A DNA stretch of 64,000 bases from Escherichia coli (GCF_045037415.1 NZ_CP173439.1); one strand, 5' to 3'. Counted from the stretch's first letter, positions 10,298 through 32,000 are shown. The notes: generated from the letters alone by a model not told the origin. Numbers and translations are program-made.

Positions 10298-10357
10298 TGT
10301 CAACGCCACGATGTTTGACCGTTATTTGCCATTTTCATGCCCGCTAAGATACTTTCG

Positions 10358-11158
10358 TTACTGATGCTGTCCGCTTTTCACCATTTCATCATCACTGATT
10401 GGCGTTGTGTTTTTGGTCAGCACTCCAGCTTTACGTTTCTCTTTTAACCGGTAACTCTCTCCTTTGATATTCAGCGTGGTTGAGTGATGTAGCAACCGAT
10501 CCAGTATCGCTGTTGCCAGCACGTGATCTCCGAACATTTCTCCCCAGTCTGCGAACCCTTTGTTTGACGTCAGTATGATGCTCGCTTTTTCATATCGACG
10601 GTTCAGTAGCCGGAAGAACAGGCTGGCTTCCTCTCTGTTCATCGGCAGATAGCCTATTTCATCCAGGATCAACACCCGGGCATAACTCAGTTGCTGCAGC
10701 TGACGCTCCAGCCGGTTTTCCTGTTTCGCTTTCATCAGTGTCGCGATCAGTCTGTCCAGTGGCATAAACAGTACCCGATGTCCCGCATCCACCGCTTTCA
10801 CGCCAAGAGCTATGGCCAGATGAGTTTTTCCGACACCAGGAGGTCCCAGCAGGATCACGTTTTCGCTGCGCTCCACGAACGCCAGACCAGCCAGTTCCCG
10901 GACAACCTTACGGTCGATGCCCGGCTGGAAGGTAAAGTCGAACTGCTCCAGCGTTTTGACCCACGGCAGACGAGCCTGCTTCAGCCTGGACTCCATACCG
11001 CGCTGATGCCTGCCGTTCCATTCCTGCTGTAGCGCCATGCACAGGAACTCCCGGTAGTTCAGCTCTTTTTTAGCTGCCTGTTCCAGCAGGCTTTCAACGT
11101 GATAACTCAGATGCTCCATTTTCAGGCGACTCAGCAGGACTTCCAGCTCATGCATCAC
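10358..11158 (-). CDS. istB: IstB ATP-binding helper protein
   Basis: 266 aa with Walker [10 protein letters not shown] and Walker B LILDEIGY. Confidence 0.9.
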
Positions 11159-12327
11159 AACAGCTCCTCATAGGCACTCAGTGGTCGATGTTCCACCTGA
11201 CTGACCTGCTGCCAGAGCGGGGCGTGATGCTCCGGCACTGTCTGCCAGCCAGACGATGCCGAACAGAGGCGATGTGAGGCCACCAGTTTCTCATTACTGT
11301 AGATCCGCAACTCGTCATCCAGCGATATTCGTATCGATACCGGCTGACCACACAGCGCTTCGGGAACGCTGTAACGATTACCACCAACCTCGATATAGCT
11401 GTCCCGGGACACATGGCGGATGTCGAATTAACTGGTATCGAAGTCCGTATCCGGTAACGGCTGCAGATGTTCCTGCTCCAGCGCGAAGCGCTGTTCCGGC
11501 GTTTCTTTGAACTGGCGAAGTTCCCGTTTGTCAGCCACATCGGCTATCCATTGCTCCAGTTGTTGATTAACATGAGTGAAGCTGTCGAACCTGCGGTACC
11601 GAACGAAGAAGTTCTCCTTGAGGTATTTCACCATCCGCTCAACCTTACCTTTTGTTCTGGCCCTGCGTGGACGGCATGCCCGTGGCAGGAAGTTATAGTG
11701 GTCGGCCAGCAACAGGAATCCGGAGTTGAACACGACTTTCCCGTTGTTATTCTTCAGCACCGCAGCCTTCTGGTTATCAACCAGCACCGTTTTCACACAA
11801 CCACCGAAGTAGCGGAAGGCGCGAACCAGTGATTCGTAGGTATGCTCAGCATCCTGTTTTGGTGCGGCGAAGACATGGAAGCGGCGGGAGAACCCCAGCG
11901 TATTAACCGCAAAGTTAACTTTGCACCGTTGCCCGGTAACCTCCACCTCAACTTCGCCCCAGTCGTGCTGGAGCTGGTATCCAGGCTGAGTTTCGAAGCG
12001 AACTGTTCTTTTTGACGGACGCATTTTACGTTTGGGCTGGATGTAGTAACGCAGCATGGAACGTCCGCCCGTATAACCCATTGCCTTAATCTCCGCAAAG
12101 ATAACCTCACTATTCCAGACATTCTCTGCCAGGCGCATGTCGATGTAATCCATAAACGGTTTCAGCTTAACCATTTTGTGGCGGGTCTTTCTGGCTGGCG
12201 GTTCAGGGTATTTGAGGTAGCGTCTGACCGTCCGTTCAGAGCAACCAATCTGAGTCGCAATATCGACAATGTACGCGCCCTGCTGGCGCATTTGCTTTAT
12301 CATGTAAAAGTCCTCTCTGCTCAGCAT
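11155..12327 (-). pseudogene. istA: IstA transposase with an in-frame TAA (299 codons, stop, 85 more codons in the same frame)
   Basis: ORFs 11428..12327 and 11155..11412 are in the same frame, separated by TAA at 11428..11430 (...DTDFDTS*FDIRHVSRDSYIEVGG); total length equals a 390-aa IstA. Confidence 0.6.
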
Positions 12328-13153
12328 GTTGATGTCCTTTCTGGTGTGAGAACCTTAAGGAAACAACATGTTGGGTGGAGCGGACAATCCAAATGGTGAA
12401 TTACCGTCTTATATCACTGGCGCTGACACGGCGTAGAACCCCGAGAAAACGAGAGCATGAAAACCCCCAGGACAGTCACTGAATGGGGGACCAGCAGCGG
12501 TAAAATAACCGACATAATTTCATAATGATGCCTCCGTTAGTTATGAAGGTTTGCGGGCTGACTATACTGTTGGTGCCTGAGCAGAACTGAAGGATTGAGC
12601 GTGTTTCTGATGGAGAGTTCCACAGGTATCCACGAGATTGATTATGCCACCAGAAACACGCTCGGATGCGTTTTAACGTTACTTTTACTGGCAGGCAAGG
12701 TTTCTTTGTTTTATTTGTATTCTGACTCTCAGAATGACTCTGTTCGCTCCATAAATATTAAAATTATCAGGTAGAAGAACTCTCTTTTGTACAACTTAAC
12801 TGTGTCTTTATGGAAATGTTGTAAAGGTTCTTTTCTTTAGCTGTATCGTATTTAAATATACTTTTCTGTAAGTGGAATCTTTGCATAAGATAATAAAAAA
12901 CAGCAAATTATATTAATGGTTATGATATCCTGGGAACACCTGATTAACTAATAAGTTATTTTAATAAAAACATCTGCACTGGCAAATAATTGTACCCCCT
13001 TCAATAGGAATATTCTTATTTAATGGCCTTGTTTATATTCTAAAAATAAAACTGAGAAACTCATCATATATTTGGTAAGAAAACGCACCGGTGAACACTA
13101 TCATGAGGCTATACTGCACTTCCTCAAATTGGGATATTATGATGCATTGATTC

Positions 13154-28908: not shown

Positions 28909-29709
28909 TTACTGATGCTGTCCGCTTTTCACCATTTCATCATCACTGATTGGCGTTGTGTTTTTGGTCAGCACTCCAGCTTTACGTTTCTCTTTTAACC
29001 GGTAACTCTCTCCTTTGATATTCAGCGTGGTTGAGTGATGTAGCAACCGATCCAGTATCGCTGTTGCCAGCACGTGATCTCCGAACATTTCTCCCCAGTC
29101 TGCGAACCCTTTGTTTGACGTCAGTATGATGCTCGCTTTTTCATATCGACGGTTCAGTAGCCGGAAGAACAGGCTGGCTTCCTCTCTGTTCATCGGCAGA
29201 TAGCCTATTTCATCCAGGATCAACACCCGGGCATAACTCAGTTGCTGCAGCTGACGCTCCAGCCGGTTTTCCTGTTTCGCTTTCATCAGTGTCGCGATCA
29301 GTCTGTCCAGTGGCATAAACAGTACCCGATGTCCCGCATCCACCGCTTTCACGCCAAGAGCTATGGCCAGATGAGTTTTTCCGACACCAGGAGGTCCCAG
29401 CAGGATCACGTTTTCGCTGCGCTCCACGAACGTCAGACCAGCCAGTTCCCGGACAACCTTACGGTCGATGCCCGGCTGGAAGGTAAAGTCGAACTGCTCC
29501 AGCGTTTTGACCCACGGCAGACGAGCCTGCTTCAGCCTGGACTCCATACCGCGCTGATGCCTGCCGTTCCATTCCTGCTGTAGCGCCATGCACAGGAACT
29601 CCCGGTAGTTCAGCTCTTTTTTAGCTGCCTGTTCCAGCAGGCTTTCAACGTGATAACTCAGATGCTCCATTTTCAGGCGACTCAGCAGGACTTCCAGCTC
29701 ATGCATCAC
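28909..29709 (-). CDS. istB: IstB ATP-binding helper protein
   Basis: 266 aa, one residue different from copy 1. Confidence 0.9.
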
Positions 29710-30878
29710 AACAGCTCCTCATAGGCACTCAGTGGTCGATGTTCCACCTGACTGACCTGCTGCCAGAGCGGGGCGTGATGCTCCGGCACTGTCTGCCAGC
29801 CAGACGATGCCGAACAGAGGCGATGTGAGGCCACCAGTTTCTCATTACTGTAGATCCGCAACTCGTCATCCAGCGATATTCGTATCGATACCGGCTGACC
29901 ACACAGCGCTTCGGGAACGCTGTAACGATTACCACCAACCTCGATATAGCTGTCCCAGGACACATGGCGGATGTCGAATTAACTGGTATCGAAGTCCGTA
30001 TCCGGTAACGGCTGCAGATGTTCCTGCTCCAGCGCGAAGCGCTGTTCCGGCGTTTCTTTGAACTGGCGAAGTTCCCGTTTGTCAGCCACATCGGCTATCC
30101 ATTGCTCCAGTTGTTGATTAACATGAGTGAAGCTGTCGAACCTGCGGTACCGAACGAAGAAGTTCTCCTTGAGGTATTTCACCATCCGCTCAACCTTACC
30201 TTTTGTTCTGGCCCTGCGTGGACGGCATGCCCGTGGCAGGAAGTTATAGTGGTCGGCCAGCAACAGGAATCCGGAGTTGAACACGACTTTCCCGTTGTTA
30301 TTCTTCAGCACCGCAGCCTTCTGGTTATCAACCAGCACCGTTTTCACACAACCACCGAAGTAGCGGAAGGCGCGAACCAGTGATTCGTAGGTATGCTCAG
30401 CATCCTGTTTTGGTGCGGCGAAGACATGGAAGCGGCGGGAGAACCCCAGCGTATTAACCGCAAAGTTAACTTTGCACCGTTGCCCGGCAACCTCCACCTC
30501 AACTTCGCCCCAGTCGTGCTGGAGCTGGTATCCAGGCTGAGTTTCGAAGCGAACTGTTCTTTTTGACGGACGCATTTTACGTTTGGGCTGGATGTAGTAA
30601 CGCAGCATGGAACGTCCGCCCGTATAACCCATTGCCTTAATCTCCGCAAAGATAACCTCACTATTCCAGACATTCTCTGCCAGGCGCATGTCGATGTAAT
30701 CCATAAACGGTTTCAGCTTAACCATTTTGTGGCGGGTCTTTCTGGCTGGCGGTTCAGGGTATTTGAGGTAGCGTCTGACCGTCCGTTCAGAGCAACCAAT
30801 CTGAGTCGCAATATCGACAATGTACGCGCCCTGCTGGCGCATTTGCTTTATCATGTAAAAGTCCTCTCTGCTCAGCAT
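29706..30878 (-). pseudogene. istA: IstA transposase with the same in-frame TAA as copy 1
   Basis: ORFs 29979..30878 and 29706..29963 are in frame, separated by TAA. Confidence 0.6.
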
Positions 30879-32000
30879 GTTGATGTCCTTTCTGGTGTGA
30901 GAACCTTAAGGAAACAACATGTTGGGTGGAGCGGACAATCCAAATGGTGAATTACCGTCTTATATCACTGGCGCTGACAAACAGGGATATTGCGACAATT
31001 CACAGCAATATCGTGCAGGAATACAACACCCTTAAAGGGTATAGCTGGAAATGGCTGGGTGGGGTGTCAGTGGCTTTTCTGGTTATGTTCTGTGTGCTCG
31101 GATGGGGAATGAAAACAATACTCGACAGGAACTACAACGCCACAGCGGCGGTGTATCAGAAAGTTGTGACACTGGAAGATAAACTGGTGGAGAAACCTGT
31201 CACGGGGAAGAGCCGGAAAAACTGACGCGCTTCGCTTGTCCAACGCCTCACGACCCGCGAAAGAATTTCGCGAACCGTTCACTGTTTTTTTCAATATGAT
31301 TCTGTCTGCTTTGGTCGATAAAGCAGACGATAGTATTCCAGCCTTCGTATATATAACGGTACGTGCTCATCAGTAAGAGCTGGCGGTATTGTGTTATCAG
31401 GGGGAAGTTTTTTCAGATACTCACGAAATGCCTGGCTTGATGCCATAAAATCTACAGCTGCATCGATAATATGTGGGATATTTTCATCTAATTTTGTCAT
31501 GATGATTGATCTGATATTATCACGGTTCGTGAATTATAGTATGTCACTATTATTTATGCTTTAGTGAACCAGAAAAAATCCCCCGTTGGTATAGGGGGAT
31601 ATGTAAGGAGAAATAACTTCGCAGGTGTTCTTGTTTGTATTATAACGTGAAAAGAATGCACGCAACTTAATTAATCTGCCGTACTTCCTTTCAGTTTTCA
31701 AGATAAGGTTTATAATAAAACATGGAATGGAAGCAAGCTTTAAGGTTTCAGCTCTAAAATTTTTAATATCTATTAACTAGCTAGTTGTTGTCCTTGTGAG
31801 CATGTTGTATATAAAAGCTAGGATAATATCCTGACCGGAGTATTCATATTCCTTATCCCCTCTGTGTTCTCAGAGGTTTTTTTCTGTATTTAATGATATG
31901 AGCTGGAATGCGATTCCGGCCCCCCCCGTTTACATAATTCTCCCTGACATACGGCACCGGAATCGCATTGATTTTGCATTGCTAATGTCTAACTGTGCTG

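Follow-up and report, generated by a model that had tools for sequence, protein, structure and literature searches.

Insertion sequences carried by F-type plasmids are substrates of homologous recombination, and exchange between their copies produces inversion isomers as well as the formation and resolution of cointegrates. A related process, in which gene conversion maintains insertion sequence copies that are no longer functional, was reportedly described by Cordaux (2009, Mol Biol Evol; cited in PMC3205602); in that case the inactive copies are near-identical within a genome and diverge between genomes. For IS21 itself, Reimmann and Haas are said to have described a cointegrase product in which a replicon lies between direct copies of the element. 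Two copies of one insertion sequence surrounding cargo are also the arrangement of the composite transposons Tn10 and Tn5, in which the copies are inverted.

The locus examined here lies in a window of 64,000 nucleotides from Escherichia coli (NZ_CP173439.1), this being the whole stretch of DNA that was analysed. It contains two elements with the same 2131 bp length, ends and overlapping istA and istB genes as the IS21 of the IncP-1alpha plasmids R68/R68.45 and pBS228 and of pUTI89, from which they differ by a TAA codon in place of Tyr300 and by the missing 4-bp duplication. In contrast to Tn10 and Tn5, the copies are direct, and they have neither an outer duplication nor an intact transposase in cis. 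As in other F-type plasmids, sister plasmids show swapped flank pairings, and direct copies lie around a replicon module; the situation is the same in principle, although the element providing homology here is probably transposition-defective, which would leave RecA-type recombination as the only likely route. Compared with the case of Cordaux, derived substitutions are here usually common to both copies of a plasmid and lacking from those of other plasmids, the host is a free-living bacterium in which the copies are on conjugative plasmids, and transfer between plasmid and chromosome is apparent in both directions, subject to assembly caveats. We consider it probable that these IS21 copies are fossils which gene conversion has kept alike and which serve as recombination substrates in a plasmid lineage; this would be ordinary biology.

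Two copies of IS21 in direct orientation

The boundaries of both elements were set against the type IS21 of pBS228 and the copy in pUTI89, which are each 2131 bp long with TG...CA ends.

10298..12428, minus strand: IS21 copy 1, 2131 bp, both ends intact
28849..30979, minus strand: IS21 copy 2, 2131 bp, both ends intact
12429..28848, no strand: inner segment, 16,420 bp between copies 1 and 2
19118-20095: RepFIB repB, in the inner segment

The ends of both copies were identical to those of the pBS228 and pUTI89 elements, as expected of an IS21 of about 2.1 kb bounded by 5'-TG...CA-3', and istA, for a transposase with HTH, DDE and beta-barrel domains, and istB, for an AAA+ helper, followed one another in each, with istA broken at codon 300. 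The ist genes of both are encoded on the minus strand, which puts the copies in direct orientation, at an offset of exactly 18551 bp. An earlier reading made from the sequence alone (the sequence-only reading) had placed copy 1 and the direct orientation correctly and had started copy 2 at 28848, one base too far left, because a flanking G matches there by chance. It had also described the copies as differing by a few substitutions, and we counted three over 2131 bp (10882, 11406 and 11937).

The comparison with reference IS21 which that reading had proposed gave 99.9% identity: of the 2131 bases, 2 in copy 2 and 3 in copy 1 departed from the pBS228 element. Against the intact pUTI89-type IS21, copy 1 differed only at IS positions 1131 and 1640, so that copy 1 equals the pUTI89-type element with TAA and A131T, and copy 2 equals the type IS21 with TAA and the IstB change A93T. 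The base at IS position 1109 of copy 1 is that of the pUTI89 type, and the TAA is found on two sequence backgrounds that are distinguished 22 bp away, at this position. By these alignments, each of the two elements is IS21 itself.

The segment between them was annotated and agrees with the 16.4 kb containing RepFIB, nested insertion sequences and receptor genes that had been reported for it. Its genes comprise bactofilin, an autotransporter fragment, IS3/IS30/IS91 remnants and a truncated DUF3800 gene, together with an integrase, IS3 copies, a TonB-dependent receptor, a DUF4198 gene and an ISEc22 tnpC fragment.

A nonsense codon in istA

The gene content of the two copies was as follows.

11155..12327, minus strand: copy 1 istA, a pseudogene with 299 codons before the TAA and 90 in frame behind it (translation)
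11428..11430, minus strand: TAA codon of copy 1, TAC (Tyr300) in intact IS21; followed by T
10358..11155, minus strand: istB of copy 1, intact, 265 aa, 100% identity to reference IstB
29706..30878, minus strand: copy 2 istA, a pseudogene likewise stopped by TAA at codon 300 (translation)
29979..29981, minus strand: TAA codon of copy 2, TAC (Tyr300) in intact IS21
28909..29706, minus strand: istB of copy 2, intact, carries A93T

It had been proposed that TAA follows codon 299 in both copies with 85 codons remaining. The position of the stop was confirmed, while the number of sense codons after it is 90; the value of 85 is the length of the open reading frame that begins at the first GTG, 15 nt past the TAA. 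A matching istA in pN10c is labelled 'internal stop' in RefSeq. The Pfam beta-barrel domain PF22483 covers IstA residues 291-361, and the TAA at codon 300 falls at its start, and the stop removes the C-terminal beta-barrel of IstA. This barrel stabilises the IstA tetramer (PMC10122671), and in a related IS21-family system IstA(1-287) showed strongly reduced stimulation of the IstB ATPase and strongly reduced DNA integration in vitro (PMC11208146). By analogy with that homologue, which comes from another bacterium, the transposase activity of the truncated IstA has probably been lost.

Flanks and target-site duplications

We sought to determine whether the four sequences that adjoin the copies retain traces of target-site duplication.

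9466..10297, minus strand: flank P, phd/doc toxin-antitoxin genes, adjoining the istB end of copy 1
12429..13903, plus strand: flank Bf, bactofilin gene and upstream region, adjoining the istA end of copy 1
28182..28848, minus strand: flank C, 3' fragment of ISEc22 (IS66-family) tnpC, cut by the istB end of copy 2
30980..31225, plus strand: flank H, hypothetical gene, 5'-truncated, adjoining the istA end of copy 2

Copy 1 is preceded by ...CTAAG and followed by CGGCG..., and copy 2 is preceded by ...TTCTG and followed by AACAG.... However the four flanks were paired, no 4- or 5-bp duplication appeared, nor did the swaps that inversion, intramolecular transposition or cointegration would leave give one, and the earlier claim that target duplications are absent was thereby upheld. 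Other IS21 sites have clean 4-bp duplications (ACAT, CCGT, ACGT and GCTG), and the absence here reflects later rearrangement and not a different chemistry. Since no flank pairing restores a duplication, recombination between copies 1 and 2 alone is an insufficient explanation, and further unobserved events must therefore be assumed. The original partner of the Bf flank was not recovered from E. albertii/E. coli plasmids with an intact IS21 at that place, in which the left flank is CTAT, not CGGC.

A composite structure had been offered as one option for the pair, and this was not supported. The outer flanks (TAAG and AACA) show no duplication around the unit, the IS-cargo-IS unit was found at no other site, with all matches having the same four flanks, and the window's outer flanks also enclose a single IS21 in other plasmids.

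In 20 sampled contexts, every readable flank of a TAA copy was one of the two istA-side or two istB-side flanks of the window, and no new insertion site for a TAA copy was seen in these contexts.

Frequency and origin of the TAA allele

The frequency of the allele was determined with a 61-mer that was shifted to avoid the second variable site at IS position 1109. Across 5426 complete E. coli genomes, TAA was present in 16 of the 794 IS21-bearing records (15 plasmids and 1 chromosome), and approximately 98% of these records had TAC. All 15 plasmids possessed the same four flanks as the window. At least 1000 public contigs encode the 299-aa IstA product, and 64 encode its A131T variant. TAA is a minority allele confined to one lineage, and the suggestion that the shared stop goes back to one mutation held: it is identical by descent, neither a sequencing error nor two independent hits. 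Substitutions in the TAA lineage were mostly nonsynonymous (5 against 1 synonymous), including some downstream of the stop, which suggests relaxed constraint. Literature searches on the TAA allele, or on these plasmids with IS21, returned nothing specific.

The abundance of the codon bears on two further explanations. Repeats can be homogenised by polishing, and a shared stop could in principle be an artefact of sequencing or assembly, although nothing specific points to this; the codon is present in 15 complete plasmids, one chromosome and at least 1000 independent contigs, and three differences between the window copies survived assembly, which leaves an artefact with almost negligible probability. 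It had also been left open whether the stop is real or is read through. With the codon established as real on at least 1000 contigs, elements that remain active through readthrough, reinitiation or a split protein would be favoured by the 90 downstream codons, which are open in most copies, by the GTG-started frame of 85 codons and by the abundance of the allele in public data. However, the stop has the context UAAU, with T after TAA in the DNA, and UAAU is the most efficient terminator context in E. coli. The folding of the downstream RNA was no better than that of shuffled sequence (z = -0.21), new insertion sites were lacking in the sampled contexts, and the substitutions, downstream ones included, were mostly nonsynonymous. 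A search of the window for a suppressor tRNA found no tRNA gene. Bypass of the stop is accordingly very improbable, and the abundance of the allele is attributed instead to hitch-hiking on a successful plasmid lineage.

Flank exchange and inversion isomers in related plasmids

The copies had been proposed as substrates for homologous recombination, and related complete plasmids bear this out with swapped flank pairings that occur as inversion isomers. From PLSDB, the pairings C-IS-Bf and P-IS-H were recovered in 5 complete plasmids, all with inverted copies, and the pairings P-IS-Bf and C-IS-H in 7 (3 inverted and 4 direct). All four pairings of the window flanks were thus found in related complete plasmids. 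Complete plasmids showed no resolved product, whether a lone P-IS-H copy that lacks the inner segment or a circle of 18.5 kb. Chimeric haplotypes (585T/1109G/1640T) were confined to short contigs of metagenomic or draft origin (L025, L027 and L028) and may be assembly chimeras; they were rejected as proof of crossover, since two copies from one cell can be mixed when short reads are assembled.

Direct copies enclosing a complete replicon module with RepFIB repB also invite a reading in which a RepFIB replicon with a tandem (IS21)2 junction entered an F plasmid and the TAA arose later. The IS21 cointegrase product is a replicon between direct IS21 copies, according to PMC10122671, which cites Schmid et al. 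1998. The outer junctions, TAAG and AACA, nevertheless show no 4-bp duplication, related plasmids have the same flanks around inverted copies, which the fusion route does not produce, and the TAA would still need conversion to reach both copies. We regard this origin as unlikely.

Exchange of alleles between copies and between replicons

Homogenisation by gene conversion, the reading preferred here, was examined through the alleles of paired copies. In CP032516 and OZ040109, four extra derived substitutions were each present in both copies, and CP146683 had none of the four in either copy. The paired copies were identical within pN10c and likewise within CAXJEB. The pap island of the chromosome contains an IS21 flanked by the duplication CCGT, at a site that is occupied in 34 other genomes; this IS21 was intact in the two sequences read (L017 and L018), and three more had TAC. 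TAA was found at the pap-island site only in strain MMC-J-0105, which also hosts a TAA plasmid and whose chromosomal copy matches the plasmid copy. Conversely, LC-1302-2020 was the only strain with an intact copy at the plasmid P-Bf site, and that copy is identical to the chromosomal one of the strain.

Because the pap-island site is held by intact copies in 34 genomes, the TAA there indicates allele transfer and not a new insertion. The shared derived substitutions and the TAA at a chromosomal site with a duplication mean that non-reciprocal exchange could have spread the TAA, and we infer that gene conversion was its route into both copies. It could have spread between two copies that had been inserted earlier, while still active. 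Descent of both copies from one already-mutated ancestor, which had been preferred over two independent transpositions, is therefore not required by the data. The identity within assemblies and the TAA of MMC-J-0105 could in part be products of short-read polishing or repeat collapse, and not of gene conversion.

A different route would be copying of the dead IS21 by transposition, with IstA provided in trans from an intact IS21 and the flanks scrambled later. Both copies have ends identical to those of active IS21 as well as an unbroken istB, intact elements are common in E. coli (TAC in approximately 98% of IS21-bearing records), and at IS position 1109 copy 1 has the base of the pUTI89 type, which suggests contact with a copy of that type. 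Against this, no pairing of the four flanks gave a duplication, the readable flanks of the sampled TAA copies were all among the same four, and the sole TAA copy with a duplication occupies a site held by intact copies in 34 other genomes. Mobilisation in trans is thus improbable. Possible sources of IstA in trans are the pUTI89-type plasmid copy and the chromosomal pap-island copy.

Proposed history and implications

Under the gene conversion reading, the change of Tyr300 from TAC to TAA would have made both elements non-autonomous, as the barrel that provides tetramer stability and IstB ATPase coupling is gone. The TAA would have a single origin in an E. coli F-type plasmid lineage characterized by RepFIB, a TonB-receptor/senB cluster and microcin J25-like genes. 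Its presence in both copies is proposed to be due to sequence exchange between co-resident IS21 copies by RecA-type homologous recombination, in which non-reciprocal exchange (gene conversion) would homogenise the copies and reciprocal crossover would swap their flanks. The 2.1-kb copies would then act as portable homology: an inverted pair would flip the DNA between them, and a direct pair, as in the window, could split the plasmid into the remainder and a RepFIB circle of 18.55 kb, or could have fused two such molecules. The missing duplications would result from flank exchange and from older adjacent rearrangements. We infer the order of these events.

A more speculative and quite unlikely idea is that the TAA allele acts as a silencer of IS21 in its hosts, either through conversion into intact residents or through a 299-aa product that poisons IstA tetramers. 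If silencing were true, the TAA may be more than decay, with conversion from a multi-copy plasmid having apparently reached the MMC-J-0105 chromosome; if poisoning were true, a product with HTH and DDE domains and no barrel could bind IS21 ends.

The significance of the locus is slight outside annotation. The apparent exchange of IS21 alleles between plasmid and chromosome in both ways would, if read data bear it out, be a small, clean case of concerted evolution across replicons. The TAA allele and the four junctions form a handy marker of one RepFIB/senB-type E. coli virulence plasmid lineage. The direct repeat predicts that the 18.55-kb RepFIB module may be looped out or taken up by recombination, and the predicted loop-out would be useful in the reading of plasmid assemblies and in replicon typing.

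Two directly repeated copies of IS21

The element boundaries were fixed against two reference copies, the type IS21 of the IncP-1alpha plasmid pBS228 and the copy on pUTI89, each of which is 2131 bp long, starts with TGTCA, ends with TGACA and is flanked by a 4-bp duplication (ACGT and GCTG, respectively). Judged by this comparison, the element in both copies is assigned to IS21 itself, and not merely to the "IS21-like" type of the sequence-only reading.

IS21 copies in the window
10298-12428, genes on the minus strand, copy 1
28849-30979, genes on the minus strand, copy 2

As the genes of both copies lie on the minus strand, the copies are direct repeats, in agreement with the earlier reading, and a repeat search with base-by-base comparison of the window placed them at an offset of exactly 18,551 bp. 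Their near-identity was also confirmed, with three differing bases (10882, 11406 and 11937). Only the start first given for copy 2, 28848, was moved by one base, because the flanking G there matches by chance.

Effect and frequency of the stop

Translation of both copies gave 299 residues followed by the in-frame TAA that had been reported. The mutation lies at IS position 1131 (window 11428 and 29979) and turned TAC (Tyr300) into TAA. It was noted that 90 in-frame codons follow the stop; the 85 counted previously are those of the ORF taken from the first GTG. In intact IstA, Pfam assigns residues 12-39 to an HTH, 113-222 to the rve core and 291-361 to the Mu-transposase C-terminal barrel (PF22483), so the whole barrel and the tail are lost. 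The barrel of a related IS21-family IstA docks into IstB, and the truncated form IstA(1-287) stimulates the IstB ATPase and integrates DNA substantially less (PMC11208146); the barrel also helps keep the tetramer together (PMC10122671). From the barrel loss and these truncation data, we infer that the TAA allele would be unable to transpose by itself.

Readthrough of the TAA looks unlikely because the base after it is T, the RNA 3' of the stop shows no folding advantage over shuffled sequence (z = -0.21), no tRNA gene was found in the window, and substitutions in the TAA lineage are 5 nonsynonymous to 1 synonymous. UAAU is the strongest terminator context in E. coli.

The 299-aa product was found in at least 1000 public contigs and its A131T variant, that of copy 1, in 64, and RefSeq calls istA a pseudogene ("internal stop") in sister plasmids. 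Among 5426 complete E. coli genomes queried with 61 bases in which the stop position alone varied, perfect TAA matches were found in 16 of the 794 records holding the stretch (15 plasmids and one chromosome), the others carrying TAC. The TAA allele is genuine, yet in the minority and linked to a single plasmid lineage, which carries RepFIB, a TonB-dependent receptor, and cjr/senB-type and microcin J25-like genes.

Surrounding gene content

Just upstream of the phd/doc flank, a lasso-peptide (microcin J25-like) set at 4891-8688 comprises an asparagine-synthase-like gene, a B2 protein gene and an ABC exporter, with a colicin-like pore-former fragment and an immunity gene to its left. To the right of copy 2, ChaN-like, TonB-like, TonB-dependent receptor and senB genes (36471-41804) form a cjrABC-senB type cluster, which identifies this plasmid as one of the senB-type F virulence plasmids. 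Between the copies, at 16638-18330, about 100 bp separate the end of an IS91-family transposase gene from a truncated DUF3800 gene; at this point the sister plasmid pN10c instead carries an IS3 copy together with an abortive-infection gene, so the inner segment is variable between otherwise near-identical plasmids, possibly through a one-ended IS91 event.

Flank pairings and probable exchange between the copies

Four flanks were distinguished, and a survey of PLSDB junctions, with 300 bp of flank on either side of the IS, grouped complete plasmids by their pairings.

Flanks and arrangements of the paired IS21 copies
P: phd/doc side, abuts the istB end
C: ISEc22 fragment beside receptor genes, abuts the istB end
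Bf: bactofilin side, abuts the istA end
H: truncated hypothetical gene beside ArsR and oxidoreductase genes, abuts the istA end
C-IS-Bf + P-IS-H, inverted: 5 complete plasmids (CP032516, LR890406, CP011136, CP146683, CP103975)
P-IS-Bf + C-IS-H, inverted: 3 complete plasmids (CP077244, CP077326, CP088519)
P-IS-Bf + C-IS-H, direct: 4 complete plasmids (CP069461, CP077381, LR890264, LR890663)

The window has the pairings P-IS-Bf and C-IS-H, and this direct arrangement was also seen in pN10c and one further assembly. In 20 sampled contexts of the truncated protein, every readable flank was P, C, Bf or H, and all four pairings occurred. The two inverted classes are precisely those that one reciprocal crossover between inverted copies generates. 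These swapped pairings in related plasmids support the proposal that the copies are recombination substrates, and provide database-level evidence of inversions between them. No resolved deletion products were found among the complete plasmids.

To reach the direct arrangement, a further inversion or the fusion of separate molecules is required. Two separate autotransporter beta-barrel gene fragments were noted in the window (14589-14990 and about 43874-44443). Each fragment adjoins an IS3-family copy in pN10c, which suggests that an IS3-associated extra inversion could account for the direct arrangement.

The copies are flanked by CTAAG and CGGCG (copy 1) and by TTCTG and AACAG (copy 2). With the boundaries reset, no pairing of the four flanks yields a target-site duplication, as had been claimed. 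Since none restores it, including at the bactofilin junction, older rearrangements must be assumed, which are beyond reconstruction. The duplication at that junction is also missing in plasmids with an intact IS21 there: E. albertii pKBSW50i-A and E. coli pS19_651-a share the identical bactofilin-side flank, and their left flank is another one, with yacAB and a gene for a DNA-binding protein. The junction is thus older than the TAA, and its partners changed repeatedly. In pUTI89-like plasmids (NZ_CP082095.1, 25366-28874), IS100, another IS21-family element, interrupts the same IS66-family tnpC beside the DUF4198/receptor genes that IS21 cuts in the window, about 57 bp from that cut; two IS21-family insertions thus lie very near each other in one gene.

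The suggested composite transposon was rejected, as the outer duplication is absent, the transposase in cis is probably defective, and the whole IS-cargo-IS unit was not seen elsewhere. The structure resembles an IS21 tandem-mediated cointegrate in geometry only.

Probable allele exchange and the shared stop

Differences from type IS21 in paired copies
CP146683: both copies TAA only
CP032516, OZ040109: both copies TAA, 221T, 585T, 952G and 1800G; one OZ040109 copy also a 1-bp deletion
pN10c: both copies TAA and 585T
CAXJEB assembly: both copies TAA and 1800G
CP077244: one site differing between copies
Window: three sites differing between copies

A new substitution shared by both copies of a plasmid can be explained by non-reciprocal transfer and not by reciprocal crossover, with the caveat that within-assembly identity could stem from short-read polishing of repeats. 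In LR890264.1, the closest full-length match to the window, both copies lack the same single base at IS position 1712, probably through a long-read consensus error. Chimeric haplotypes in three short contigs were left out as evidence.

A chromosomal IS21 lies inside an IS3-family element of a pap/iha island (duplication CCGT), and 34 other complete genomes have an IS21 at this site; two of these that were compared in sequence are intact and show no difference from the pUTI89-type copy, and three more have TAC. Only in MMC-J-0105, also host of a TAA plasmid, does the island copy (NZ_CM128543.1, 931,079-933,209) carry TAA with the neighbouring 1109A, as in the strain's plasmid copy, a match due to gene conversion or else to an artefact of polishing. 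At the P-IS-Bf site, all plasmids examined have TAA except that of LC-1302-2020, whose copy (NZ_CP091758.1, 19,169-21,299) has a fully intact istA and is identical to the strain's chromosomal IS21. Both cases point the same way, favouring non-reciprocal transfer.

At IS position 1109, 22 bp from the stop, the base is A in copy 2, as in type IS21, and G in copy 1, as in the pUTI89-type element, and both backgrounds are also known as intact elements. The TAA on two backgrounds implies that a conversion tract ended between the sites or that the transition at 1109 occurred more than once. On these alleles, we consider the stop in both copies to be identical by descent and probably spread between them by gene conversion. 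Of the single already-mutated ancestor proposed earlier, common descent of the TAA stands; duplication of a dead element was not shown, conversion being probable. Conversion among dead IS copies has a precedent in Cordaux 2009, as it appears among the references of PMC3205602.

The window structure behaves as is familiar from mosaic F plasmids, where IS copies serve as recombination substrates, with the copies evolving in concert. Features of this kind have been described before; of mild note is only that plasmid and chromosome appear to have exchanged alleles in both directions.
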